Part shown: piece by piece, positions 15,497-64,000 of the stretch
How positions within the stretch are numbered: the first letter of the stretch is position 1
How the letters are laid out: each line of letters starts with the position of its first letter
From: Rhodospirillaceae bacterium
GTDB lineage: Bacteria; Pseudomonadota; Alphaproteobacteria; Rhodospirillales; Rhodospirillaceae
DNA length: 64,000 nt
NCBI GenBank assembly: GCA_019694335.1
Contig: JAIBCD010000003.1
Location: forward strand, 16,113-80,112
Direction: 5' to 3'
Translations under genes and position numbers: made by a program
Notes under the pieces: generated by a model
Database searches by the model: none
Told to the model about the DNA's origin: nothing
What the model saw: the letters and a program-made list of their open reading frames with translations, nothing else

Positions 15497-17155
15497 ATGG
15501 CCGCGCCTGCTTCAGACATCGGCGCGTTCGTGGCCCGCTATCGGCTCACCGAGGGCTTCCGCCCCTATCTTCTGCTGACCTTGCTGTGCCTCGTCCTTTA
15601 CGCGCCGGGGCTCGCGTCGTTGCCGCCCATGGACCGCGATGAAGCGCGCTTCATGCAGGCCACCAAGCAGATGATCGAGACCGGCGACTACGTCAACATC
15701 CGCTTCCAGGAAGAGGCCCGGAACAAGAAGCCCGTGGGCGCCTACTGGCTGCAGGCGGCTGCGGTGAAACTCACGAGCGCCGAACTCACCGCGCCCTGGG
15801 CCTACCGTCTGCCGTCGGCGCTGACGACCTGGCTCGCGGTGCTGACCACTTTCTTTTTTGGACGCAGGCTGTTCGGTGCGCCCGCCGGATTGACCGCCGG
15901 CGCCATGCTGGCGACGACACTGGTCGTGGCCGCGGAGGCCCATCTCGCCAAGACCGACGCGGCGCTGCTGTGCGCCACCACCCTGTGCCTTGCGGGACTA
16001 GGGAGCGTTTACACCGAACCGCGCAAGCAGATCGGCGCGGCGCTCCTATTCTGGAGCGCGCTGGCGGCCGGCATCCTGATCAAAGGGCCGGTCATCGTCG
16101 CGGTGGCCGGCGCCACGGGCGCCGCGCTGTGCCTCGCGGACCGTGATCTGAAATGGATTTGGCGGCTGTATCCCGTGGCCGGTGTCGCCCTGCTCGCGGC
16201 CCTCGTGGCGCCCTGGCTGCTGCTGCAATCGTCGGCCGGCTCCGGGTTCGTGAGCGCGTCCTTCCAGGAAGACATCCTGCCCAAACTCGTCGGCGGCCAG
16301 GAAGGCCACGGCGCGCTGCCCGGCACGCACCTGGTGCTCGGCGTGGTCACCGCGTGGCCGTGGTCGGTGCTCGCCCCGTTCGCCGTGATCGCGGGCTGGC
16401 GCAAGCGCGCCGAACCGGCGGTGCGGTTTTGCCTCGCGTGGCTGGCACCCGCATGGATCGTGTTCGAACTCGTACCCACCAAACTCCCGCACTACACCCT
16501 GCCGCTGATGCCGCCGCTGATGCTGCTGATCGCCGCGCTGTTGCGGGATCTGCCCGACCTGCGCGGCCTACTCGGCGGCCGGTGGGGGCTGGGGTGGCGG
16601 ATCGCCTGGTCGTGGGTGTGCATCATCCTCGGCGTCATCGCCCTGGTCGCCGCGCGGCGCTTCGGTGACGGCAGCGTGATCCCGGCCACCATGGCCGCGA
16701 TCATCATGCTAGGCGCGGGCCTCTATGGCATGACCGTGCTCGGGCGTTCCGGGACCGCCCAGGCCGTGCTGGGCGTCGGCATCGCGAGCTTCGCGTTCTA
16801 TGTGACGGTGTTCGGCGCGGAACTGCCGCGCTTACCGCGCTTGGCGCTCAGCGACCGCATCGCCGCCCGCGCGAAGCCGCTGATGACGGAGCCGGTCATC
16901 ATCGCAGGCTATCACGAACCTTCCGCGATTTTCCTTCTCGGTACGAGAACCATCCTGTCGGATGCGAAAGGCGCCGCCGACCATCTGCTGGCCCATCCGG
17001 CGGCGCTGGCGGTGGTGCCGGTGGCGGCTCTCGACCTTGTGCGCGAAACGCTGGCCGCGGGCGGACGGAACCTGGTGCGGATCGAGGAGTTCGGCGGGTA
17101 TAACTATTCCCGCGGCAGGCCCGAACACCTGGCCCTGATTACCACCGGCTCATGA
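15497..17155 (+). CDS. ArnT/PMT-like membrane glycosyltransferase (GT39/GT83-type)
   Basis: 552 aa and polytopic. The N-terminal loop motif PPMDRDEARFMQATKQMIETGDYV...KKPVGAYWLQ resembles the ArnT DE.RY.E..REM loop. Confidence 0.75.
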   Translation: MAAPASDIGAFVARYRLTEGFRPYLLLTLLCLVLYAPGLASLPPMDRDEARFMQATKQMIETGDYVNIRFQEEARNKKPVGAYWLQAAAVKLTSAELTAPWAYRLPSALTTWLAVLTTFFFGRRLFGAPAGLTAGAMLATTLVVAAEAHLAKTDAALLCATTLCLAGLGSVYTEPRKQIGAALLFWSALAAGILIKGPVIVAVAGATGAALCLADRDLKWIWRLYPVAGVALLAALVAPWLLLQSSAGSGFVSASFQEDILPKLVGGQEGHGALPGTHLVLGVVTAWPWSVLAPFAVIAGWRKRAEPAVRFCLAWLAPAWIVFELVPTKLPHYTLPLMPPLMLLIAALLRDLPDLRGLLGGRWGLGWRIAWSWVCIILGVIALVAARRFGDGSVIPATMAAIIMLGAGLYGMTVLGRSGTAQAVLGVGIASFAFYVTVFGAELPRLPRLALSDRIAARAKPLMTEPVIIAGYHEPSAIFLLGTRTILSDAKGAADHLLAHPAALAVVPVAALDLVRETLAAGGRNLVRIEEFGGYNYSRGRPEHLALITTGS

Positions 17156-48055: not shown

Positions 48056-48124
48056 GGGTGACTCCTATGTTTGGTCGCATCTTTACCGGCCGAACCGGCT
48101 TCCCCTTCGGCCCAAAATGCTCCG

Positions 48125-49024
48125 CTAAGCTTGGCGCGCGTCGATGATGCTGCGCCGGACCGCGCGGGTGCGCGTGAACAGGTCTTCCAGGGTCTTGCCG
48201 TCGGCCTTGCGGATCGCCTTCTGCAGCGCCGTCAGATCCTCGGTGAAGCGCTGAAGGATTTCCAGCACCGCCGGACCGTTGGTCAGGAAGATGTCGCGCC
48301 ACATCACCGGGTCGGAGGCGGCGATACGCGTGAAATCGCGGAAACCGGAGGCCGAATACTTGATCACCTCGCGCTTGAGGTCGCCTTCCAGATCGGTGGC
48401 GGTGCCGACGATGGTGTAGGCGATCAGGTGCGGCAGGTGCGAGGTGATGGCCAGCACCATGTCGTGATGGTCGGGCTCCATGATGTCGACCTTGGCGCCG
48501 ATGCGGCGCCACAGCTCGGCGACCTTCGCGGCCGCCTTGGGCGAAGTGCCCGGCGGCGGCGTCAGGATGCTCCAGCGGTTCTGGAACAGCTCCGCGAACC
48601 CGGCTTCGGGGCCCGAGTGTTCGGTGCCGGCGATGGGATGTCCCGGAACGAAATGCACGGCCTTGGGCAGATGGGGCATTACCGAAGCGATCACGTCCTT
48701 CTTCACCGAACCGGTGTCGGTGAGGATGGCGCCAGGCTTGAGGTGCGGCGCGATGGCCTTGGCGATGGCGGCGTAGCTGCGCACGGGCGTGGCGATCACC
48801 ACGAGGTCCGCGCCCTTCACTGCCTTGCCGGCGTCCTTGAACGCTTCGTTGACGATGCCGAGATCGAGCGCGGTTTTGCGCGCCTTCGGGTTGCTGTCGC
48901 AGCAGACGATCGCGTCCGCGGCCCTGGCCCGGCGAATCGCGAGGGCCATCGAGGCGCCGATCAAGCCGATGCCGATGAACGCAACCCGGCTGAACAGCGG
49001 CTTTTGCGCTTTTTCCTTTGGCAC
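48125..49024 (-). CDS. tyrC: Prephenate/arogenate (cyclohexadienyl) dehydrogenase
   Basis: Rossmann motif VAFIGIGLIGASMA and HPIAG. I place the start at GTG 49024 (VPKEKAQKPLFSR...). The track start at 49078 (also GTG) would translate through the hairpin element at 49022-49066 and overlap hisC. Confidence 0.75.
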   Translation of the reverse strand: MPKEKAQKPLFSRVAFIGIGLIGASMALAIRRARAADAIVCCDSNPKARKTALDLGIVNEAFKDAGKAVKGADLVVIATPVRSYAAIAKAIAPHLKPGAILTDTGSVKKDVIASVMPHLPKAVHFVPGHPIAGTEHSGPEAGFAELFQNRWSILTPPPGTSPKAAAKVAELWRRIGAKVDIMEPDHHDMVLAITSHLPHLIAYTIVGTATDLEGDLKREVIKYSASGFRDFTRIAASDPVMWRDIFLTNGPAVLEILQRFTEDLTALQKAIRKADGKTLEDLFTRTRAVRRSIIDARQA

Positions 49025-49066
49025 GCGTCCGGACGCAAAACCGGGGGCCACTTTTGCTGGACGCGC
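49022..49066. repeat. 45-nt imperfect-palindrome (REP-like) element, copy B
   Basis: CACGCGTCCGGACGCAAAACCGGGGGCCACTTTTGCTGGACGCGC. The stems are CGCGTCC/GGACGCG and GCAAAA/TTTTGC. It ends 1 nt from the TAG stop (49068-49070) of hisC. Confidence 0.8.
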
Positions 49067-49067
49067 G

Positions 49068-50159
49068 CTAGCCACCACGCTTGCTCATGAATTCGGCGAG
49101 CGCATCGAGGGTAATGCCCATCTCTTCCTCGGTGCCGAGGGTGATGCGCAAATGATCGGGCAGGCCGTATCCATCCACGCGCCGCGCCAGGATGCCTTTG
49201 GACTGCAGGAAGGTATCGGCTTCGGGCACCAGGCCTTTCGGGAATTCGGGCAACACGAAGTTGCCGTGACTGTCCTGCACCTTAAGCCCGATGCCGCGCA
49301 GGCGCTGCAGCACTACTTTCATCATCTTGGTGTTATGCGCGCGCTGCTTCGCCACATGGGCCTGATCGGTGAGCGCGGCGATACCGGCCGCCTGGGCGGG
49401 GCGTGAAACGTTGAACGGCGAACGGATCCGCTGCAACGCGCCGATGATCGCCGCCGGGCCGAACGCCCAGCCGAGGCGCAAGGCCGCCAGGCCATAGATC
49501 TTGGAGAACGTGCGCAAGGTGATGGTGTTGGGAGTGGTGGAGGCGAGCTTGGTGCCCGGCTCGTAATCGGGCGCTTCCACGTATTCGGCGTAGGCGTCGT
49601 CCACGACCAGCAGGATGTCCTCGCGCAAGGACGCGCGCAGCCGGTTCACCTCGGACGCCGGGATATAGGTGCCGGTGGGATTGTTGGGATTGGCGAGGAA
49701 CACCACCCGGGTCTTGTCGGTCACCGCCGCGAGCAGCGCGTCCACGTCGGCGGTGAGATCGCGCACCGGCGCCGCCACGGGCGTGGCGCCCACGCTCTTG
49801 GTGGAAATCTCGTACATGAGGAAGCCGTAGCGGGGATAGAGCACCTCGTCCCCGGGCCCGGCGAACGCGCGACAGGTCAGCAGGATCAGCTCGTCCGAAC
49901 CCGCGCCGCAAATGACGCGGTCGGGATCGAGCCCGTTCGCCTTGCCGATGGCGTCCCGCAGATCGGCGGCATCGCCCTCGGGGTAGCGCTCCAGGCTGCG
50001 CGCGATGTCGTCATAAGCCGCCGTGGCCTTCGGGCTAGGACCGAGGGCGGCTTCGTTGGACGAGAGCTTGATGATGCGGCTGGCCCCCTGCACCACCGAT
50101 TTACCCGGAACATAGATGGGCAGCGTCATCACTTGCGGCTTGGGCTGAGGCAGCGGCAT
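49068..50159 (-). CDS. hisC: Histidinol-phosphate/aromatic aminotransferase
   Basis: Trimmed to MPLPQPKPQVMTLPIYVPGKS at 50159, preceded by AAGGAAG. KLSSNEAALGPSP is typical of HisC. The start could also be 50189. Confidence 0.8.
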   Translation of the reverse strand: MPLPQPKPQVMTLPIYVPGKSVVQGASRIIKLSSNEAALGPSPKATAAYDDIARSLERYPEGDAADLRDAIGKANGLDPDRVICGAGSDELILLTCRAFAGPGDEVLYPRYGFLMYEISTKSVGATPVAAPVRDLTADVDALLAAVTDKTRVVFLANPNNPTGTYIPASEVNRLRASLREDILLVVDDAYAEYVEAPDYEPGTKLASTTPNTITLRTFSKIYGLAALRLGWAFGPAAIIGALQRIRSPFNVSRPAQAAGIAALTDQAHVAKQRAHNTKMMKVVLQRLRGIGLKVQDSHGNFVLPEFPKGLVPEADTFLQSKGILARRVDGYGLPDHLRITLGTEEEMGITLDALAEFMSKRGG

Positions 50160-53899: not shown

Positions 53900-55057
53900 A
53901 TGATCCTGCAATCCATCGGCAGACTTGGCTTGGCCTGTGCGGTCCTGGCAGGTTTCGCCCACGACGCCGCGGCGCAGATCGAGGTGCCGGAAGAATGCCT
54001 CCGCGCGCTGCAGACCTATGAGCGCAGCTACCAAATTCCCCAAGGCCTGACGACGGCGATTTCGTTGGCCGAGGCCGGCCGCCCGATGGGCCCCAACGGC
54101 CGGCGCTTGCCGTGGCCATGGACGATCAACATCAACGGTCAGGGCCGGTTCTTCGATACCAAAGAGCAAGCCGTGGCTGAAGCCCGCAAACAGCTCGATG
54201 CGGGCCAACGCTCGATCGATGTCGGCTGCATGCAGGTGAACCTGCGCTATCATCCCACCGCCTTCCGCACCCTCGACGACGCCTTCGATCCCGCGACCAA
54301 CGTCGCCTACGGCAGCAAGTTCCTGGCCTCGCTGCACACGGTGCAGGGATCATGGGAAAAGGCCGTCGAGCGTTACCACTCCTCCGACGACAACCGCCGC
54401 GAAGATTACCGCGACAAGGTGATGGCGTTGTGGAACGGCGAGGTCCGTACCCTGGTCATGGATGCCGTGCAGGCGGAGAACACCAACACGCCGTACCACC
54501 GCGCCCTCAATGCCTTTGCCGCGGGCGAGTACACCGATGCCCTGGAAAAATACCAGGCGATCGTCGCGAGCAACCCCAAGGACCGGCTCGGACTGCTCGG
54601 CGTCGCCATGACGTATGAGAAAATGGGCCAGGCCGGGGATGCCGATAAGGCCTACGGCCGCTACATCGCGGCCCAGCCGGACGACCCGGCGGTGCTCGCG
54701 GACCGGATCAAGGCCGCCAGGGCGCTCCCGCCGGCGGAAGCGCGCGCGCGCCTTGAGGCCCTGGCCAAAGCCGGTGTTTCCGAATCCGAGCTGTTCGCCG
54801 CCTTGTCCGAGGTGCTCGCGGCAACGGGCGACAACGAGGCGGCTTTGTCCTATGCCGAAAAGGCGGTCAAGGGCGCGCCGTCGGTGGTTCTCTACCAGCT
54901 CAACGCCGCGATCCTGGCGGACCGCCTGAAGCAGCCGGCGGTTGCCGTGCGCTATTACGAGAACTTCCTGGCCCGCGCCGAACGGCAGCCGGCCCTCATT
55001 GAAGTATCGATCGCGGAAATACGCAATCGCGTGGAGTTTCTGCGCGCACGGATGTAA
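53900..55057 (+). CDS. Specialised lytic transglycosylase (SLT, IagB/VirB1-like) fused to TPR repeats
   Basis: It has a signal peptide (MILQSIGRLGLACAVLAGFAHDAAAQ). The SLT motifs are AISLAEAG (catalytic Glu context) and IDVGCMQVNLRYH. The C-terminal half is TPR-like (YTDALEKYQAIVASNPKD..., YIAAQPDDP...). Confidence 0.7.
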   Translation: MILQSIGRLGLACAVLAGFAHDAAAQIEVPEECLRALQTYERSYQIPQGLTTAISLAEAGRPMGPNGRRLPWPWTININGQGRFFDTKEQAVAEARKQLDAGQRSIDVGCMQVNLRYHPTAFRTLDDAFDPATNVAYGSKFLASLHTVQGSWEKAVERYHSSDDNRREDYRDKVMALWNGEVRTLVMDAVQAENTNTPYHRALNAFAAGEYTDALEKYQAIVASNPKDRLGLLGVAMTYEKMGQAGDADKAYGRYIAAQPDDPAVLADRIKAARALPPAEARARLEALAKAGVSESELFAALSEVLAATGDNEAALSYAEKAVKGAPSVVLYQLNAAILADRLKQPAVAVRYYENFLARAERQPALIEVSIAEIRNRVEFLRARM

Positions 55058-55094
55058 CACATAAGAACACGCGACCAAAAAACGGGGTGGGGAC

Positions 55095-56237
55095 ATGGAA
55101 ATCACGGAACTTCTGGCATTCGCGCAAAAGAACAAGGCCTCCGACCTGCATCTCGTGGGCGGCAAGGAACCGATGGTGCGCATCGACGGCGGATTGAAGC
55201 CGATCAAGACCGGCGACCTCTCGGCCGATACCGTCAAGAACATGCTGTACTCGGTCATGACCGAGGAGCAACGCTCGGAATACGAAAACGAGAAGGAAAT
55301 CGACTTCGCGATCGCGTTCGGCGCGGAATCGCGCTTTCGCGTCAATGCCTATACCACCGCCACCGGCTCGGCCGCGGCGTTCCGTGAAATCCCCACCAAG
55401 ATCCCCTCGCTGGAACAGCTCAACGCGCCCGCGATCTTCAAGGAATTCGCCCAGATCGAGCGCGGACTGGTGCTGGTGACCGGCCCGACCGGATCGGGCA
55501 AGTCCACGACGCTGTCGGCGATGATCAACTGGATGAACGAGAACACCGACAACCACATTCTCACCGTCGAGGATCCGGTGGAATTCGTCCACGGCAAAAA
55601 GCGCGCGCTGATCAACCACCGCGAAGTCGGCAAGCACACCAAGTCCTTCGCCCGCGCGCTCAAGAGCGCCTTGCGCGAAGATCCCGACGTGATCCTGGTC
55701 GGGGAAATGCGCGACCACGAAACCATTTCACTGGCCCTGACCGCGGCGGAAACCGGCCACCTTGTCATGGGGACGCTGCATACCAGTTCCGCGGCCAAGA
55801 CCGTGGATCGCATCATCGACGTGTTCCCGTCCGGCGATAAGGAAATGGTCCGCGCCATGGTGGCGGGCTCGCTGCAGGCGGTGATCAGCCAGGTGCTCCT
55901 CAGGCGCAAGGGCGGCGGCCGCGCCGCGGCGCACGAAATCATGGTGGGCACCTCGGCGGTGCGCAACCTGATCCGCGAGAACAAGATTCCGCAGATCTAT
56001 TCGATGATCCAGGTCGGCCAGCGCTATGGCATGCAGACCATGGACGATTCCATCAAGCGCCTGGTCGAGCAGGGCGTCGTCGACCCCGAGGAAGCTTCCG
56101 CGATGAACGCCAAACTCAACGACAGCGGGCCGTCGACGACCGGCGGCGGCGAAGCCGCGCCTGCGCCCCGGCCCGCCGCACCGCAGGCATCGCAGCCGGC
56201 GGCAGCGCCCGCCGCGAAGTCGCGCTCGATCTTCTAA
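55095..56237 (+). CDS. pilT: PilT-type pilus retraction ATPase
   Basis: 380 aa with Walker A GPTGSGKST, Asp box VEDPVEF, Walker B DVILVGEMRD, His box TGHLVMGTLHT and PilT signature AVRNLIRENK. A Pro/Ala-rich C-terminal tail of about 35 aa is an extra. Confidence 0.85.
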   Translation: MEITELLAFAQKNKASDLHLVGGKEPMVRIDGGLKPIKTGDLSADTVKNMLYSVMTEEQRSEYENEKEIDFAIAFGAESRFRVNAYTTATGSAAAFREIPTKIPSLEQLNAPAIFKEFAQIERGLVLVTGPTGSGKSTTLSAMINWMNENTDNHILTVEDPVEFVHGKKRALINHREVGKHTKSFARALKSALREDPDVILVGEMRDHETISLALTAAETGHLVMGTLHTSSAAKTVDRIIDVFPSGDKEMVRAMVAGSLQAVISQVLLRRKGGGRAAAHEIMVGTSAVRNLIRENKIPQIYSMIQVGQRYGMQTMDDSIKRLVEQGVVDPEEASAMNAKLNDSGPSTTGGGEAAPAPRPAAPQASQPAAAPAAKSRSIF

Positions 56238-56296
56238 GGCACTAACGTTACCTGCGCCGAACGACCGGCGGCCAACGCCGGCGCGGCCAGAACAGG

Positions 56297-57442
56297 ATGG
56301 GGGATTCCATGATCGACGCCGAATTTCAGGGTTGGTTGCGTGAATTGGCGGGGCCGGGCGGCTCCGACCTTTATGTGACCGTCAACGCGCCGCCGGCTTG
56401 GCGTGGCGGCTCGGGCTTCCGCAACCTGCGGGACAAGCCGCTGACGGTCGAGGAAATCAACCGCATCTTCTCCAGCTTCCTGAACGAGAAGCAGCGCAAG
56501 GAATTCGACACCACCGGCGAATTCAACATGGCCCTGATGATGGAAGGCGTGGGCCGGTTCCGCCTCAACCTCTTCAAGCAACGCCAGATGCCCGGGATCG
56601 TGGCGCGCATCATCCGCGCGGAGATCCCCACCCTCGCCCAGTTGAAGCTGCCGAGCCTGTTCGGCGACCTGGTGATGGAAAAGCGCGGATTGATCTTCGT
56701 GGTCGGCGGCACCGGTTCGGGCAAATCCACCACACTCGCTGCGATGATCGGCCATCGCAACGAAACCGCCCCGGGTCACATCATCACCATCGAGGATCCG
56801 GTCGAATACGTGCACGATCATAAAAAGTGCATCGTCACCCAACGCGAGGTCGGCGTGGACACCGACAGCTTCGACGCCGCCCTCAAGAACACGCTGCGCC
56901 AGCACCCCGACCTGATCCTGATCGGCGAAATCCGCGACATGAAAACCATGGAGCATGCCATCAACATCGCCGAGACCGGGCACCTGGCCATGGCGACCTT
57001 GCATGCCAACAACGCCAATCAGGCGATCGAGCGCGTCACCAACTTCTTCCCGATCGAGATGCACCACCAGATCTTGTTGAACCTGTCCCTGAACCTGCGC
57101 GGCATCATCTCCCAGCGCCTGGTTGCGAAGAAGGAAGGCGGCCGCGCCGCCGCCCTCGAGATCATGCTCAATCAGGGCTACATCAAGGAGCTGATCGGCA
57201 AAGGCGAGATCAAGGAATTGAAGAAGGTCATGGAGGAAAATGCCCATAACGGCATGCAGACCTTCGACCAGGCGCTGCTCAAGCTGTTCCAGGAAGGCAC
57301 GATCAACGAGGAAACCGCACTGGCGGAAGCCGACAACGTGGGCGACCTCAAGCTCAAGATCAAACAGGCCAACATCGCCTCCTCGGGCAAGGGCGGCGGC
57401 GGATTGAAGGACGTGGATACGTCGAAGCTGTCGCTCGGCTAG
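56297..57442 (+). CDS. pilU: PilU-like second PilT-family ATPase
   Basis: 381 aa with GGTGSGKST, IEDPVEY, DLILIGEIRD and TGHLAMATLHA. It lacks the A(I/L)xNLIRE motif, having GYIKELIGKGE instead. Confidence 0.75.
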   Translation: MGDSMIDAEFQGWLRELAGPGGSDLYVTVNAPPAWRGGSGFRNLRDKPLTVEEINRIFSSFLNEKQRKEFDTTGEFNMALMMEGVGRFRLNLFKQRQMPGIVARIIRAEIPTLAQLKLPSLFGDLVMEKRGLIFVVGGTGSGKSTTLAAMIGHRNETAPGHIITIEDPVEYVHDHKKCIVTQREVGVDTDSFDAALKNTLRQHPDLILIGEIRDMKTMEHAINIAETGHLAMATLHANNANQAIERVTNFFPIEMHHQILLNLSLNLRGIISQRLVAKKEGGRAAALEIMLNQGYIKELIGKGEIKELKKVMEENAHNGMQTFDQALLKLFQEGTINEETALAEADNVGDLKLKIKQANIASSGKGGGGLKDVDTSKLSLG

Positions 57443-57451
57443 GCGCCCGCT

Positions 57452-58198
57452 TCAGCCGGCGGCGCGCTCACTTTCTTCCAAAGCGGCGAGGAATGCACGC
57501 TCCAGCGATTGGGCGCCCAATCGGCTGACGAAATCCCGGGGCGTGCCCAGGAAGATGATTCGGCCGGCGTGCAGGACGGCGATGCGGTCGCAGATCTCCT
57601 CGATATCCGACAGGATATGCGAGCTAAAGAACACCGACCGGCCGGCAGCCTTGCTCTCCATCAGGCGGTCCTTGAGCATCACGCGCGCGCGCGGGTCCAG
57701 ACCGCTCATGGGCTCATCCAAGATCATCAGCGCCGAGTCCACGAGGAAGGTAGCCACCAGGCCAAGCTTCTGGCCCATGCCTTTGGAGTAGGTCTTGACC
57801 TTGCGGTCGATCGCGGCCGGATCGAGATCGAGCCCCGCGGCAATGGTGCGCGCCCGGTCGCGGTCGATCGTCTGCCCGAAGTACGCGAGCATGATTCCGA
57901 GGTACTCCCAGCCATAAAGCTGTGGCGACGGCTGGAACTTCTCCGGGAGATACACGAGATTGCGCCGGGCCACGGGTTCGGTACAGGGTTCGCCGAACAG
58001 TTTGATGTCCCCCGCGGCCTGCCTGAGACCAAGGATGGACCGGATCATGGTGGTCTTGCCGGCCCCATTCAGCCCGACCAGGCCGAACACTTCACCGGAC
58101 TGCACGGCGAACGAGACGTCCGCGAACACCTGCTTTTTGCCGTAACTGGCGGAAACGGCCGCGAGTTCCAGGGGCGGCGCCCCCGTGGCCGGACTCAC
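57452..58198 (-). CDS. ABC transporter ATP-binding protein (ABC-2/DrrA-like), no adjacent permease
   Basis: 248 aa with Walker A GLNGAGKTT, signature YSKGMGQK, Walker B LMILDEPMSGLD and H-loop SSHIL. The GTG start overlaps the TGA of the upstream gene (GTGA). Confidence 0.8.
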   Translation of the reverse strand: MSPATGAPPLELAAVSASYGKKQVFADVSFAVQSGEVFGLVGLNGAGKTTMIRSILGLRQAAGDIKLFGEPCTEPVARRNLVYLPEKFQPSPQLYGWEYLGIMLAYFGQTIDRDRARTIAAGLDLDPAAIDRKVKTYSKGMGQKLGLVATFLVDSALMILDEPMSGLDPRARVMLKDRLMESKAAGRSVFFSSHILSDIEEICDRIAVLHAGRIIFLGTPRDFVSRLGAQSLERAFLAALEESERAAG

Positions 58199-58656
58199 TG
58201 CACCCGCCCCTCAACGACGATGCCGGATTTGGCCACGAACGTCTGGTTGGGTCCGAGGCGGACGGGGCGCATACCCATGGCGCTCAAGGGCACCAGCAAC
58301 TCGACCGATGACGGTGAAATGTCGGTCACCTTAAAGGCTTGGAAATCCTGGTGCGGTTCGATCGGCACACCGTTCACCCAGATGACCCAATCTGTCGGGC
58401 TGAAATAGAGAATACTCGAGAGATAGAGCGACGCGTTCTCGACGGCGTTACCCGCATTGGCCCCAGCCCCGGCATCCGCCTGTCCGATACGACTCTGGAT
58501 ATCCGTGAGCTCATCGGTCGTGAACATAAGGGTATCGGGAACGCGCGCATCAGAGACCGCAACCGGCGCATCGGCGGATTTGGCGTCGGCGGCAACGGTG
58601 TCATGAAGCCACAGCAAGCCGACAAATGCGACAAATGCGAAGGTGACAGTCCTCAT
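58195..58656 (-). CDS. Small secreted protein, possible PilP/MshK/GspC-HR-like
   Basis: 153 aa with a signal peptide (MRTVTFAFVAFVGLLWLHDTVAA). The C-terminal pattern LYLSSILYFSPTDWVIWVNGVPIEPHQDFQAFKVTDISPSSVELLV resembles the L.L.GI....A.iNG......G......V..I....V.L pattern of HR/PilP domains. This rests on my pattern recognition only. Confidence 0.4.
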   Translation of the reverse strand: MRTVTFAFVAFVGLLWLHDTVAADAKSADAPVAVSDARVPDTLMFTTDELTDIQSRIGQADAGAGANAGNAVENASLYLSSILYFSPTDWVIWVNGVPIEPHQDFQAFKVTDISPSSVELLVPLSAMGMRPVRLGPNQTFVAKSGIVVEGRVQ

Positions 58657-59312
58657 GGCTTTTGCTCATTGGCCAAGGCGGTTCGCCACACCAGGTCCAT
58701 CTCGCCGGTCACGATCGCACCTTTCTTACTGATTTGTGCAAGCATATCTGCGGTCACTTTCGGCGGCCGCGAAAGCTTGAGGGACGTCAGCACCGCCGAA
58801 CCGGGAAAATTCCGGCGTAAATCGGCGGTGAATCCGTAGATCTGCCCATCGAGCGGCGACCCGAGCTTGATCTTGATTGACTCGACGCTGACGCGATAAG
58901 CCTGGGCTTGGGTCTGGGCCTGGTTTGCCGTTGGCGGTGCGGCTCTGTCATTGGCGGCCGCGAATTCGGCGGTCATCTCGGTCAAGCCATGTTCCTGGGC
59001 CAGGCTTTGAAGCTGTTTGAGGGCATCGCGCCGTGTGTGGGGCACCAGCCGATCCCCCTTCATCAGCTTTTCGAATTGTTCGGTGTTTTCAGTGACGAAT
59101 TTGTAGTCGGCGTTGGCCGAGGCCGCATCCCGCGTGGCTTGATCGATGGACCTTTTGAGCCGTGCGCTTTCGGTGACCGCACCGTCGAGCGTACCGCCGA
59201 GCACTTCGAGCAGTATGACGAATAGAACGGCCGAACTGACCAGCACGGCCAGGGAAATCATCACCTTGCGCGGCAAATCCGGAATCTTGATGCGGATTTC
59301 GGGGAGTTTCAT
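58653..59312 (-). CDS. Bitopic PilO/MshJ/GspM-like assembly protein
   Basis: 219 aa with a short cytoplasmic N-terminus, one TM (VMISLAVLVSSAVLFVILLEVLG), a coiled-coil and a C-terminal globular part. ATGA overlaps occur at both ends. Confidence 0.5.
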   Translation of the reverse strand: MKLPEIRIKIPDLPRKVMISLAVLVSSAVLFVILLEVLGGTLDGAVTESARLKRSIDQATRDAASANADYKFVTENTEQFEKLMKGDRLVPHTRRDALKQLQSLAQEHGLTEMTAEFAAANDRAAPPTANQAQTQAQAYRVSVESIKIKLGSPLDGQIYGFTADLRRNFPGSAVLTSLKLSRPPKVTADMLAQISKKGAIVTGEMDLVWRTALANEQKP

Positions 59313-60904
59313 CGCGCCACCTTCACAATACGGAATTCGGCGCGGAACGGCTCGTCGGAGTGAGGAGCTGTATCAAGACCGAGAACATCTGATAGTCCGC
59401 CCGAGAATGTCTGGCTGGCCTGGGCCGCCAGCGGCGCCACGGTCATCTGCACGCGATAGTCTTTGCCGAAGCTTTCGTTCAGGCGACTCTCGAGGCGGCG
59501 CGTCACTGCAACGGCTTCATCGGCCGTCACAACTACACTCGGCAACTGCATCCCCGCGACCAGTACATATTCCGATTTTTCCCCCGCCGGCGTACCCGGA
59601 GCGGGTACTGTGACCTGCTGGCCGAGCACGCCGCTGTTGATGCTGAGGCTGGTCACGACCGCGTCGCTCTGTAGAGCGCGCGCCAGAGCTTGCAACGGCG
59701 GAACGATGTCGATCTGGCCCACATCCAGGGTTTTATCAACCTCGATCGCGCTTCGGACCCGGCCCGGCTCGTAGGGCATCCCGCCCGCCAGATTGCGAGC
59801 CGAGGTCAGAGCCGCATTCTTCTGATTTAGTTGCGCTTGCAACGCGGTGTTCTGATCGTTGATCTCCAGCAACTGGTTGGTCGTCCACCCCGCCCAGATC
59901 AGAACCGCCGCCGCCGCGACACCAGCGACATAGGGCGCCGCCAAAAACGCGAGTTCGCGAATATCATCCATGGTGTCGCCCATGGCGAGCGAGCGAGTCA
60001 GAGGCAGCAGCGGCCTGCGTTTGGAAGCGAACCAGGCGGCATGCAGCACGTCACCGAAAGCCTGGTCCTCGCGGCCGAGGGAGCCGAGATTGAGGAGCAT
60101 CCCGGCCTCATATGGCGTGTAGACCGATGCCGAGCGTGCGCCATCCCAGGTCAGATCCTCGAGTACCTTTTTGTTATCGACCGAAGTCAGCACTACCAGA
60201 TCCAGGGGCTCACCCACCTGATAGCCGAGGCGGCGGATATAAGTGATGGTCGCCTTGAAATCCCTGAGAATCATGTCGGCGAAGTCTTCCGGCGGCGTTT
60301 CCGGCGGTGGCGCTTGCGTCAGACGGGTAAGAGAAAGCCGGCCGTTCTTGGTAATGATCTGGCGGAGGCCGCCGGTGACGTTGATGCTGACAAGATGACG
60401 CCAGTGGTTCTTGCCTTCCTCCGCGGGCGGTACGTCCTTCGGCGCGAGCGCCTCCAAGATATCCGCATTCTCGGGCGCAATCGCGTAATAGCCCCCTTTG
60501 TCGTTGGGCAGACTTTCAACGAACTCAACCCAGCCGGGGATATGTCCATCCAAGGGCACGGCGGCAAATTCATAGACAAGGGTCTTTTTGTCGGTTTCGG
60601 TGACCATGCGCGCGCCGCGCAAATTCTGACCTGGATAGGCCATGTTGATATGGCGGGCGAGCACCTTGCGACGGTCGAGAATGCTGACCTTCGGGATCTC
60701 TTCTTCCTTGGAGGACTGGTCGAGGGTGTCGATGAGCACCGACAATTTGGCCTTCGGATCCTCGGCCAGCGCCTCTCCCAGTTCTTCCTGAGCCATGGCG
60801 GGATCGGGCGAACCCAGCCAAGCATTGGCGACCTTTTTGTCCACCAGCTTAGTCAGAACGACATTGTCGTCGCCGATGCTCAGGACATATTCGCTGCGCG
60901 CCAT
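59309..60904 (-). CDS. Bitopic GspL/MshI-like (PilM-PilN fusion-like) assembly protein
   Basis: 531 aa. A cytoplasmic domain of about 335 aa is followed by one TM (LAFLAAPYVAGVAAAAVLIWAGW), a coiled-coil (NQLLEINDQNTALQAQLNQKNAAL) and a periplasmic domain. It sits between the platform protein and the PilO-like gene. Confidence 0.5.
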   Translation of the reverse strand: MARSEYVLSIGDDNVVLTKLVDKKVANAWLGSPDPAMAQEELGEALAEDPKAKLSVLIDTLDQSSKEEEIPKVSILDRRKVLARHINMAYPGQNLRGARMVTETDKKTLVYEFAAVPLDGHIPGWVEFVESLPNDKGGYYAIAPENADILEALAPKDVPPAEEGKNHWRHLVSINVTGGLRQIITKNGRLSLTRLTQAPPPETPPEDFADMILRDFKATITYIRRLGYQVGEPLDLVVLTSVDNKKVLEDLTWDGARSASVYTPYEAGMLLNLGSLGREDQAFGDVLHAAWFASKRRPLLPLTRSLAMGDTMDDIRELAFLAAPYVAGVAAAAVLIWAGWTTNQLLEINDQNTALQAQLNQKNAALTSARNLAGGMPYEPGRVRSAIEVDKTLDVGQIDIVPPLQALARALQSDAVVTSLSINSGVLGQQVTVPAPGTPAGEKSEYVLVAGMQLPSVVVTADEAVAVTRRLESRLNESFGKDYRVQMTVAPLAAQASQTFSGGLSDVLGLDTAPHSDEPFRAEFRIVKVAR

Positions 60905-60907
60905 GCC

Positions 60908-62116
60908 TCAAAATCCCATTTTTGAAAGGCTGTCGTAGATCGGGCCCATCACCCCGGCCACGATCCAGGCCATGATTGCGCCCGAGATCACGGTCATGGC
61001 GGGCTCGACCGAGCCGATCATGGCGTCGATCGCTTCATCCACGTCCTTGTCGTAGAAGCTGGTGACGTTATCCATGACGCCGCCGAGATTACCGCTGTCC
61101 TCGCCGATCTTGATCATGCGGCAGACCAGGCTGGGGAATTGACCGGAGGCGCGCATCGCGGCCGACAACGGCTCGCCGTTCTGCACCTGTTGGCGGACGC
61201 TTTTCATGGATTCCTCCAGGCAGCGATTGCCCACCACGCGCTGGGCGGTTTCCAGGCACTGTAGAATCGGCACACCGCTTTGGAACATCACGGCAAAGAA
61301 ATGAGCAAAACGCGAGATGGCCAGCTTTGTGGTCAACACGCCCATCATGGGGACACGCAGCGCCAGGCATGACAGCGCATAGCGCGCGGTCTCCGAGACC
61401 TTGGATATCCCTACGATCGTGCCGACGATGACAATCGGCGTCAGCAGCATGACCCACCAATAATTGACGACGAAATCCGATGTGGCGATCAACGCCAGCG
61501 TGACCGGCGGCAGGGTTTGGCCGTTGGACTTGAGGAACCCGACAATGCCGGGCACGACGAAACCCATCATGAACATCAACATACCGGTGATGATGATCAG
61601 CACCACCGCCGGATAGCGCGCGGCCTTCACCACTTTTTGGCGGATCGCGTCTTCCCACTTTACGTGTTTGGTCAAGTGCTGGAAGGCCTCGGTGAGTTTG
61701 CCGCTTTCCTCCCCCACCGCGATCAAGGAAGCGTACAAATCGCCGAAAATCTTGGGGTGTTTCTCGAAAGCCTGTGAAAGCGGCGTACCGCTGCCGACAT
61801 CGCTGATCAGCATCGTCGTCATATCGCGGACACGCGGGATGTCGGTGGAATCGCGCACGTCGGTGAGCGAATCCAGGAGCGGCACGCCCGCGGCCTGCAG
61901 CTGTTCAAGATGCATGAAGAACTGGATTTTCTCGCGCGCGCTGATGCCGCGGGCCGCGGCCTGAGCGATGCCGCCGGTCTTGGACACCTTGCTGTCGAGC
62001 AGCATCAAGCCGGTCTGCTGCAGCTGCTGATACAGATCGCTTTCGTTGTTCGCGGATATCTTGCCGCGGACGGTACGGCCGGCGTCGTTCAGAGCACGGT
62101 ATGCGTATTGCGGCAT
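60908..62116 (-). CDS. pilC: Type II secretion / type IV pilus platform protein (GspF/PilC family)
   Basis: 402 aa, MPQYAYRALNDAGRTVRGKISANNESDLYQQL..., with two T2SSF repeats and 3 TM segments. Confidence 0.85.
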   Translation of the reverse strand: MPQYAYRALNDAGRTVRGKISANNESDLYQQLQQTGLMLLDSKVSKTGGIAQAAARGISAREKIQFFMHLEQLQAAGVPLLDSLTDVRDSTDIPRVRDMTTMLISDVGSGTPLSQAFEKHPKIFGDLYASLIAVGEESGKLTEAFQHLTKHVKWEDAIRQKVVKAARYPAVVLIIITGMLMFMMGFVVPGIVGFLKSNGQTLPPVTLALIATSDFVVNYWWVMLLTPIVIVGTIVGISKVSETARYALSCLALRVPMMGVLTTKLAISRFAHFFAVMFQSGVPILQCLETAQRVVGNRCLEESMKSVRQQVQNGEPLSAAMRASGQFPSLVCRMIKIGEDSGNLGGVMDNVTSFYDKDVDEAIDAMIGSVEPAMTVISGAIMAWIVAGVMGPIYDSLSKMGF

Positions 62117-62125
62117 CGGATCTTT

Positions 62126-64000
62126 CTAGAGGCGGTCGGTAAAATCGACGATCTTCATGGCGGCGTCGAGGCTGGTTTTTCCCTCCAGAACCTTGGTCAC
62201 CGCGTCCTCGATCATCGGGACGAAACCGCCCTTTTCCGCCGCCTTCTTGACCTGGCTGAGCGGCGCTTCGTTAAGCACCAGCTCATCGACCTCTTCATTG
62301 AACGGCAGGATTTCGGAAGCCGCGATCCGCCCCTTGTAGCCGGTCTTGCGGCAGTTATCGCAGCCCCTGGCATGGGCGATCATCGGCGGATTGGCCGGAT
62401 CGGCGCGCAGCAGCTTGCACTCCTCGGCGGTCGCCGGCTTCATTTCCTTGCAGTCGCACAGCTTGCGCACCAGGCGCTGGGCGATGATGCCGATGATGTT
62501 GCCGGACATGAGGCTGGGTTTGAGACCGAGATCGATGAGGCGGGGGATACAGCCGGCGGCATCGTTGGTGTGAAGCGTGGTGTAGACTTGGTGGCCGGTC
62601 ATGGCGGCGCGCAGAGCCATGGTCGCGGTGCCGCTGTCGCGCACTTCGCCCACCAGGATCACGTCGGGATCCTGGCGCATCAGGGTGCGGATACCTTCGG
62701 AGAAGCTGAGCGAGCTGCCTTCGCGCACCTGCGCCTGGCGGATCAGCGACAGTTCGTATTCCACCGGATCCTCGAGCGTCATGATGTTGACGTCGAGGGA
62801 GTTGATGTACGCCATCATGGCGTAGAGCGTGGTGGTCTTGCCCGAACCGGTGGGCCCCGTGACGATGATGATACCCTCGGGCTTTTGCACCATCTTCTTG
62901 ATCAGCGCGAAATTGTGCGGCGTGTACCCCATCTTGTCGATGGTCACCAGCGTCTGGGACTTGTCGAGAATACGGAGCACGACGTTCTCGCCGTGGATGG
63001 TCGGCAGCGATGAGGCGCGGAAGTCGACCTTGCGGTTGCCGATTTCCAGCGTGAAGCGCCCGTCCTGCGGGTTGAGGCGGTCGGCGATATTCATGCCGCC
63101 CATGAGTTTGATTCTGTGGCAGGCCGCGGCCCAGTGGCGCTTGTGCAGGGTGCGGATCTGGGTCATTTCGCCGTCGATGCGATAGCGCAGGCGGAGGAAG
63201 TTGCCTTCCGGCTCGAAGTGCACGTCCGAGGCACCGCTCTTGATGGAGTCGAGCAGCAGCGCGTTCACCAGCCGCACCAGCGGGTGCAGATAGCCGCCCT
63301 CGGTCTGTTCGACGTATTCGGTCTCCTCGTCGTCGCCGGCTTCGCCCGATTCGAGTTCCTTGAGGATGCCTTCGATGGAAAGCTCGTGCCCGTAGTACTG
63401 GTCGATGGCCTTCTGAACGTCGGTGTCGGAGCACACCAACGGCTGGACATTGGTGCCGGCGGGGAAGAAGCGCTTGACCTTGTCGATGGCCAACACATCG
63501 TAGATATCGGCCATGGCAAGGCGCAGTGTCTTGCCGTCGAAGCCGACCGGGAACGCGCGGTAGCGCTGCGCGGCTTCCTTGGGCAGAAGCGCCAGCGCTT
63601 CGGGCTCGACCACGCTCGAGCCCGGCGAGAATCTCTGGAAGCCCGAGCTCTCGGCCAGCACCGCCGACAGCGCCTGTTCAGTGATGAAACCGAGATCGAC
63701 CAGCAGCTCGCCGAGCAGCTTGTTGGACTTGCCCTTTTCCTGGAACGCGACGTCGAGCTGATCCTTGGAGATCAGGCCGCGCTGGACCAGCAGGTCGCCG
63801 ATACGGGCGGTGGTCGGTTTGGTCGCCTCGGCGAGAACCGCCGACAACTTCTGCTCGGTGATGAAGCCGAGCTCGATGATCACTTCACCGAGGAGTTTCG
63901 TGGACTTGGATTTTTCCTGGAACGCGACGTCGAGCTGTTCCTTGGTGATTAGCCCCTTTTCCAGCAGGAGATCGCCGATGCGCACTGTGGGCGCCGCTTT
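62126..64000 (-). CDS. PilB/GspE/MshE-family assembly ATPase with tandem MshEN-type N-terminal modules (5' end probably beyond the window)
   Basis: It has Walker A GPTGSGKTT, LEDPVEYEL, DVILVGEVRD, TGHQVYTTLHT and a tetracysteine CDC...CDNC. The N-terminus has two copies of RIGDLL..(K/R)GLI(T/S)K(E/D)QLDVAFQEK-5 aa-LLGE....LGFITEQ.LSAVLAE. The frame stays open from the GTG at 63985 to position 64000 (KAAPT-), so the real start is likely off-window. Confidence 0.85.
   Translation of the reverse strand, partial: KAAPTVRIGDLLLEKGLITKEQLDVAFQEKSKSTKLLGEVIIELGFITEQKLSAVLAEATKPTTARIGDLLVQRGLISKDQLDVAFQEKGKSNKLLGELLVDLGFITEQALSAVLAESSGFQRFSPGSSVVEPEALALLPKEAAQRYRAFPVGFDGKTLRLAMADIYDVLAIDKVKRFFPAGTNVQPLVCSDTDVQKAIDQYYGHELSIEGILKELESGEAGDDEETEYVEQTEGGYLHPLVRLVNALLLDSIKSGASDVHFEPEGNFLRLRYRIDGEMTQIRTLHKRHWAAACHRIKLMGGMNIADRLNPQDGRFTLEIGNRKVDFRASSLPTIHGENVVLRILDKSQTLVTIDKMGYTPHNFALIKKMVQKPEGIIIVTGPTGSGKTTTLYAMMAYINSLDVNIMTLEDPVEYELSLIRQAQVREGSSLSFSEGIRTLMRQDPDVILVGEVRDSGTATMALRAAMTGHQVYTTLHTNDAAGCIPRLIDLGLKPSLMSGNIIGIIAQRLVRKLCDCKEMKPATAEECKLLRADPANPPMIAHARGCDNCRKTGYKGRIAASEILPFNEEVDELVLNEAPLSQVKKAAEKGGFVPMIEDAVTKVLEGKTSLDAAMKIVDFTDRL

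Follow-up and report, generated by a model that had tools for sequence, protein, structure and literature searches.

Two tandem MshEN_N-type modules, candidate c-di-GMP sites, at the N-terminus of a pilus assembly ATPase from a Rhodospirillaceae bacterium

We analyzed a 64,000-nucleotide stretch of DNA (the window) from a Rhodospirillaceae bacterium, comprising positions 16,113 to 80,112 of contig JAIBCD010000003.1 (C119:16113-80112) in assembly GCA_019694335.1, a metagenome-assembled genome (MAG), and characterized the gene at its far end, which encodes an MshE/PilB-type pilus assembly ATPase. This ATPase carries exactly two MshEN_N-type modules in tandem. The second, module B, forms together with the MshEN_C subdomain behind it the canonical MshEN domain found in all relatives, and the first, module A, is an additional MshEN_N subdomain lacking an MshEN_C of its own. 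Judged by profile, alignment and predicted fold, both units are clearly genuine MshEN_N-type modules. We put at roughly 0.55 the probability that they provide two independent sites per protomer for cyclic di-GMP (c-di-GMP) that tune pilus assembly. The gene and its parts, in window coordinates, are as follows.

62126..64000 (in-window part), minus strand: MshE/PilB-type pilus assembly ATPase gene (open reading frame listing, contig extension, Pfam)
63824..63982, minus strand: module A, residues 16-68, extra MshEN_N-type four-helix module, the added copy (NF053729, phmmer, AlphaFold2, Foldseek)
63806..63823, minus strand: inter-module linker TKPTTA, residues 69-74, of low predicted confidence (pLDDT) between the bundles and variable in orthologues
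63647..63805, minus strand: module B, residues 75-127, ancestral MshEN_N module, orthologous to the sole module of relatives (NF053729)
63377..63634, minus strand: MshEN_C subdomain, residues 132-217 (PF05157, Pfam 'MshEN'/T2SSE_N, 62.2 bits, profile positions 5-89 of 90)
62159..63286, minus strand: T2SSE hexameric ATPase core, residues 248-623 (PF00437, 390.2 bits, E = 9.3e-117)

A preliminary description of this DNA, made from the window alone, correctly recognized two tandem 53-residue units in the minus-strand frame ending at 62126 and a conventional T2SSE_N-like segment after them, which Pfam annotates as MshEN/T2SSE_N and which is followed by the T2SSE ATPase domain. It also held that three or more modules were probable, an expectation that proved wrong once the upstream sequence was read. 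The 5' part of the frame, whose stop lies at 62126, runs past the window end, and the contig extends another 8.5 kb in that direction. The start is an ATG 27 nucleotides (9 codons) past the window end, at C119:80139, giving a product of 633 residues with no further modules. A Shine-Dalgarno-like GGGGGAA precedes this ATG, an in-frame TGA lies 13 codons upstream, and a pilin-like gene upstream ends 65 nucleotides away. Furthermore, the N-terminus MDGDK is common to all orthologues, whether they have one module or two. Because the start lies beyond the window, a stop codon precedes it in frame and MDGDK is conserved, the module count is exactly two; a third module upstream is ruled out by the contig extension and the in-frame stop.

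Modules A and B share 73% identity over 56 residues (BLASTP, E = 3e-30). At the DNA level they appear as a direct repeat of two 167-nucleotide copies, 76% identical and spaced by exactly 177 nucleotides, or 59 codons. The stretch matched by PF05157, which corresponds to the C subdomain, occurs only once in the protein, and the 59-residue repeat unit is the N subdomain alone; the complete MshEN domain (N plus C) is not repeated, unlike in ATPases of the PilF-type (MshEN)n-T2SSE architecture. The ATPase core holds the Walker A motif GPTGSGKTT and a Cys-rich zinc motif region. By its sequence, the protein is a member of the T2SSE assembly ATPase family, as indicated by the core, Walker A motif, MshEN_C and surrounding pilus cluster. 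It falls short of two NCBIfam equivalog cut-offs, scoring 494.7 bits against TIGR02538 (PilB; cut-off 675.65) and 467.6 bits against TIGR02533 (GspE; cut-off 630.25), and has no subfamily assignment. As a side observation, the Pfam model PF05157, although named 'MshEN', covers the C subdomain only and the ligand-binding motif falls outside it; because it sees only that subdomain, Pfam architectures under-report MshEN_N modules. The c-di-GMP-type bundles of this ATPase surface in Pfam only as weak matches, to DUF4388 (27.7 bits, just over its cut-off of 25) and, below the cut-off, to FumaraseC_C.

Membership of both units in the MshEN_N family was supported by profile searches. NCBIfam NF053729 ('cyclic di-GMP-binding domain, MshE-related'; 53 positions, cut-off 38 bits) matched the ATPase twice, at 67.4 bits for module A and 69.1 bits for module B, each match spanning profile positions 1-52 of 53. 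Module A of orthologues scored 68.8-73.4 bits. For calibration, Vibrio cholerae MshE, a c-di-GMP binder, scored 85.0 bits, and the Thermus thermophilus PilF domains GSPII-B and GSPII-C, also proven binders, scored 63.6 and 62.5 bits, values that both modules exceeded. The non-binding PilF domain GSPII-A also passed, at 55.5 bits; the score therefore indicates membership only, and its use as a predictor of binding is ruled out. On its own, module A matched residues 9-60 of MshE (structure 5HTL) with E = 3.9e-7 (phmmer), as well as PilF GSPII-B. Module B with MshEN_C aligned over its full length to the MshEN domains of Geobacter PilB, Myxococcus PilB, V. cholerae MshE and T. thermophilus PilF, at E = 1.5e-16 against 5HTL.

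Structure prediction agreed with the profile matches. An AlphaFold2 model of the N-terminal region, built on an alignment of 40 sequences with a mean pLDDT of 85, contained two four-helix units, a low-confidence linker and an α/β C subdomain. Both modules are predicted to be compact bundles of four helices (pLDDT 83-93; 83-88 in module A), and MshEN_C is predicted to adopt its α/β fold with pLDDT above 90. When module A was modelled alone (pLDDT 83), it superimposed on ligand-bound 5HTL with a root-mean-square deviation (rmsd) of 0.6 Å over 51 positions (Foldseek) and on ligand-bound PilF GSPII-B with 0.7-0.8 Å. For the model of module B plus MshEN_C, the top match in the PDB was the MshE-c-di-GMP complex 5HTL, with a target-normalised TM-score of 0.84-0.85 and an rmsd of 2.1-2.3 Å.

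We compared the contact residues with those of MshE, where the two half-motifs read R9 L10 G11 ... L25 ... L29 ... Q32, a spacer, and R38 L39 G40 ... L54 ... L58 ... Q61. A pattern search verified that each module is built from two half-motifs of 24 residues with a spacer of 5 residues between them. Both modules retain all four Gly, every hydrophobic triad position, the Gly-Asp/Glu dipeptides and the Arg that opens half-motif I. Half-motif I opens with Arg (R16, R75) and half-motif II with Leu (L45, L104), in keeping with the extended consensus (R/K/L)LG...; Leu also opens this half-motif in PilF GSPII-B (L196), where reversion to Arg lowers affinity (PMC11731258). The Gly equivalent to MshE G11, G18, G40 and G47 are G18, G25, G47 and G54 in module A and G77, G84, G106 and G113 in module B. 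Three orthologues (P0005-P0007) have Asn at the position of G84, and the remaining seven Gly are invariant in 8 of 8 two-module orthologues. The guanine-stacking triads of module A are I17/L61/L65 and L32/F36/L46, corresponding to MshE L10/L54/L58 and L25/L29/L39, with the same pattern in module B; the replacements of L10 by Ile and of L29 by Phe are conservative, and both are invariant in orthologues. Across the eight orthologues, all motif positions of module A are invariant or conservatively replaced, its solvent-exposed guanine-stacking Arg is invariant, and non-motif positions vary. The close fit to the published motif reported earlier thus stands for layout and spacing and for the first Arg, Gly and Leu positions, as do the Phe for Leu and Lys for the final Gln seen in half-motif I. 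It overlooked, in both modules, the Leu in place of Arg opening half-motif II and the Ala or Ser in place of the final Gln.

If the modules operate in the MshE mode, each would take one c-di-GMP monomer. The stacking partners of the guanines would be the Leu/Ile/Phe triads together with the Arg of half-motif I or the Leu of half-motif II, and the backbone amides of the Gly-Asp/Glu dipeptides would read the guanine Hoogsteen edge. Two sites per protomer would give 12 per hexamer, and the bound ligand would stimulate pilus assembly in the way it does for V. cholerae MshE. The two sites are probably unequal in affinity, as in PilF, and probably not cooperative, and the flexible linker would tether module A to the remainder of the ATPase. 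Binding by the modules is plausible on sequence grounds. An isolated MshEN_N binds c-di-GMP with a dissociation constant of 0.35 µM (Wang et al. 2016, PMC5013675), and with 12 GGDEF domains encoded in its genome, the cell has c-di-GMP signalling at its disposal.

Several observations weigh against two functional sites. Both terminal Gln, which in MshE (Q32, Q61) hydrogen-bond the ribose 3'-OH and a phosphate, are replaced: the equivalents of Q32 are K39 (module A) and K98 (module B), and those of Q61 are A68 (module A) and S127 (module B). In PilF GSPII-B, Q190E weakens binding about 80-fold, to about 500 nM, and Q190E combined with Q218E abolishes it (PMC11731258). PilF GSPII-A has the motif and does not bind, and restoration of the consensus failed to rescue it (PMC12002112); because this domain passes the NF053729 model yet fails to bind, motif and fold are no proof of binding. 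The motif residues double as core and turn residues of the bundle, so that folding alone may account for their conservation. The rate of evolution of module A is about three times that of module B, and most relatives have lost module A or never gained it; it is therefore dispensable. Finally, a literature search on this alphaproteobacterial clade found no study of, or experiment on, any member. The label of c-di-GMP-binding modules given to the repeats in the preliminary description is accordingly borne out for MshEN_N membership, by NF053729, the 5HTL match and the fold, and binding is less certain than it implied.

A competing explanation, unlikely on balance yet deserving serious attention, is that only module B binds c-di-GMP, with module A serving, independently of the ligand, as a helical spacer or for docking. 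In that role module A could extend the N-terminus toward a GspL/MshI-like or PilM-like platform partner, or could bind another protein, as the N-terminus of Xanthomonas PilB binds PilZ. MshEN-type N-termini are known protein-docking surfaces, and the PilB-PilZ (7LKM) and GspE-GspL (4PHT) complexes were among the fold matches. Module A is less constrained than module B, is absent from most orthologues, has no MshEN_C partner and ends in Ala, outside the relaxed last-position set [QNKRYWST], which admits Lys and Ser (Wang et al. 2016, PMC5013675); PilF provides a precedent in its comparably silent N-terminal domain, GSPII-A. This explanation sits poorly with the invariance in module A of the guanine-stacking Arg, the Gly-Asp dipeptide and all triad positions, with a profile score on par with that of module B and above those of proven binders, and with the ability of an isolated MshEN_N to bind without the C subdomain.

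It is more doubtful still that neither module binds, the whole alphaproteobacterial clade having lost the ligand in the manner of XpsE/GspE-type N-domains, with the bundles structural or partner-binding and the duplication neutral. Replacement of both terminal Gln is clade-wide and includes single-module relatives (AFQEK...LAES), the corresponding Glu substitutions in PilF GSPII-B abolish binding, and module number varies freely between close relatives. Loss of the XpsE type, however, involves disruptive Gly and Leu changes (G11V, G40L, L54H, L58C), none of which is present here. The relaxed motif admits Lys as its final residue, and this Lys could contact phosphate; changes in MshE at R9, D12 or Q32 shift affinity less than fivefold. 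The extraordinary conservation of module B (21 identical sequences) and the dozen GGDEF domains of the genome also argue against a general loss of the ligand. Lastly, there is a negligible chance that the repeat was created artificially by assembly or annotation, for instance through the collapse or expansion of tandem copies in a fragmented MAG (4.0 Mb, 228 contigs, 2.8% contamination), since the units differ at 30% of nucleotides, the reading frame is intact and independent assemblies from four sources, covering two genera, show this two-module layout as well.

Returning to the history of the repeat, module A is, by sequence comparison, the product of an old in-frame tandem duplication of 59 codons. 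The modules are 69.5% identical in DNA overall and 53% identical at third codon positions, which indicates that the duplication is old and that the similarity between A and B has been maintained by selection; the same values rule out a recent duplication or an assembler copy. An attempt to date the event by synonymous divergence was abandoned, the proportion of synonymous differences (pS) being 0.33-0.64 in all comparisons, with overlapping intervals and near saturation. Ratios of nonsynonymous to synonymous change (dN/dS) between orthologues were 0.10-0.34 for module A and 0.05-0.14 for module B, indicating that purifying selection acts on module A but is about threefold more relaxed there than on module B. 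Module B is nearly identical to the single module of relatives and joins SSGFQRF in the same way; among the single modules, 21 are mutually identical. Module B is thus the orthologue of the single module, and module A is the added copy.

Two modules were found in 9 of 121 homologues, namely P0001-P0008 (631-639 residues) and the distant P0093, and one module in 111 of 121. Among 27 genomes of the window's genus, the syntenic gene is present in 13, with two modules in 2 (G000 and its nearest relative, G086) and one in 11, and 14 are without the ATPase gene. The two-module form also occurs in a second genus of the family; the named relatives are uncultured Rhodospirillaceae MAGs. In a tree of the ATPase body, two-module proteins fell in three separate, well-supported places, requiring at least 3 changes. 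Three independent duplications, as this tree might suggest, are not favoured: in a tree of modules a branch with only moderate support (82/80) set all extra (A) modules apart from B and single modules, and the extra modules share the derived residues GEV and LIT. On this evidence a single gain followed by repeated loss or recombination is favoured. Longer relatives (740-890 residues) were considered as possible carriers of more modules. This was ruled out, as their extra length consists of Pro/Ala/Gly-rich low-complexity N-terminal extensions and each has one module by profile search. Many single-module relatives, among them P0042, P0045, P0053, P0058, P0066 and P0074 (694-885 residues), have such tails of 130-330 residues before the module, and in four of these six (P0042, P0045, P0053 and P0066) the tail contains recurring L-x-L-G-D/E motifs, such as LVLGD, LRLSLGD and LSLGE.

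The known system that matches best in structure is V. cholerae MshE (5HTL; Wang et al. 2016, PMC5013675). It shares the 53-residue module of two half-motifs, MshEN_C and the T2SSE ATPase, along with MSHA-like accessory genes for an MshL-like secretin, an ExeA/MshM-like ATPase and a TPR/MshN-like protein. MshE, however, has one module, whereas here an extra MshEN_N stands in front, the Gln are replaced by Lys and by Ala or Ser, and the Arg of half-motif II by Leu; gene order also differs from that of the msh operon, and the secretin falls below the MshL equivalog cut-off. T. thermophilus PilF, (MshEN/GSPII)3-T2SSE (6F8L, 8PDK, 9G1W; PMC11731258, PMC12002112), is the top sequence match of the N-terminus and shares tandem MshEN-type units in a pilus ATPase and a half-motif II opening with Leu ('LLG'). 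In PilF the whole N plus C domain of about 150 residues is repeated, in contrast to the 53-residue N subdomain and 6-residue linker seen here, and both Gln are retained in those PilF domains that bind. PilF takes up two ligands, with differing affinities, and each site has a similar affinity alone or in context, without marked cooperativity (PMC11731258). The earlier suggestion of a potentially cooperative input consequently finds no backing in the one multi-domain case that has been studied.

Abutting MshEN_N copies with no MshEN_C between them are also found in the (MshEN_N)2 proteins cce_1044 (Cyanothece), Glov_2742 (Geobacter lovleyi, fused to CheX) and MXAN_7396 (M. xanthus). In proteins of this class the array stands alone or is fused to CheX, REC-cyclase, glycosyltransferase or Hpt proteins, and does not precede a complete MshEN-T2SSE ATPase. 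The (MshEN_N)2 proteins and (MshEN)2-, (MshEN)3- and (MshEN)4-T2SSE ATPases have been catalogued (Wang et al. 2016, PMC5013675, Suppl. Table 4). A search of 1.84 billion representative proteins with a single module returned 2950 matches at E ≤ 0.001, and nearly all of the best 150 had 2-9 matching stretches, with glycosyltransferases, Hpt proteins and ATPases among them. Given that catalogue and these proteins of 2-9 modules, a multi-module array is not unusual, contrary to what had been supposed. Among uncharacterised ATPases of the protein library, P0221 (721 residues) has the exact N-N-C-ATPase layout, with abutting MshEN_N modules (23-73 and 83-132) followed by MshEN_C and T2SSE, P0093 (683 residues) carries one more module on its N-terminal side, 55 residues ahead of the canonical module, and P0180 (830 residues) has a similar extra module. 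Since identity along the matched stretches is only 38-47%, these three are independent inventions of the layout. The N-N-C-ATPase arrangement lies outside the published list and is a small, lineage-restricted variation on a catalogued theme.

If both modules bind, the two-module protein and its single-module congeners, about 90% identical outside the 59-residue insert, would form a natural matched pair that could show how the number of second-messenger sites affects the response of a hexameric pilus motor. The alphaproteobacterial clade, which lacks both Gln contacts throughout, is a useful test of how much drift in the MshEN consensus is compatible with binding. Otherwise the ATPase is the expected kind of regulated pilus ATPase. 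More speculatively, and we consider it rather doubtful, the 59-residue MshEN_N cassette might be a mobile 'dosage knob' for the c-di-GMP input of the pilus motor, gained once and then repeatedly lost or exchanged by recombination among close Rhodospirillaceae. Were this so, each protomer would offer one ligand site in some congeneric species and two in others, and an extra site without MshEN_C and ending in Ala would differ in affinity, producing a two-threshold response of pilus assembly to c-di-GMP.

The ATPase gene lies within a pilus gene cluster and, on the best explanation, encodes the ATPase that drives extension (assembly) of an MSHA-like type IV pilus in this uncultured bacterium. Neighbouring components on the same strand are as follows.

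60908..62116, minus strand: GspF/PilC/MshG-type platform protein, directly downstream (PF00482, 182.8 bits in two stretches; TIGR02120, 319.9 bits)
58195..60904, minus strand: three further genes for proteins of 531, 219 and 153 residues (open reading frames)
L002:4206-12563 (C119:80205-88562, past the window end), minus strand: upstream pilus components (profile matches)

The 531-residue protein had no Pfam or NCBIfam match and the 219-residue protein no NCBIfam match; by position and topology, the three proteins are candidates for MshI/GspL-, PilO/GspM- and PilP/MshK-like alignment proteins. The upstream set comprises prepilin-type proteins of 245 and 270 residues, a prepilin peptidase (258 residues), a TPR protein (346 residues), an MshL-like secretin (699 residues), an ExeA/MshM-like AAA ATPase (347 residues) and two proteins without family assignment, one of 231 residues and one of 250 residues whose sequence is hydrophobic and membrane-like. 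The secretin is closest to MshL, at 205.7 bits (equivalog cut-off 250.2).

A mis-binned contig or horizontal island was ruled out as the reason for the absence from congeners, as housekeeping genes on the same contig have orthologues in 27 of 27 genomes of the genus and the ATPase gene is syntenic about 14 kb away in congeners. The pilus locus (window 54000-64000, L002:1-8000) has a GC content of 60-63%, 4-6 points lower than the 65-67% of the flanking housekeeping region; despite this, it is syntenic and vertically inherited within the genus. Elsewhere in the window, an element of about 55-60 nucleotides at the hisC-tyrC junction (around 48066-48126 and 49018-49072) has many dispersed copies of 81-92% identity, including copies on contigs C29, C36, C77, C93, C115, C178, C197 and C202 of G000 and in congeners, and looks like a REP-type intergenic repeat.

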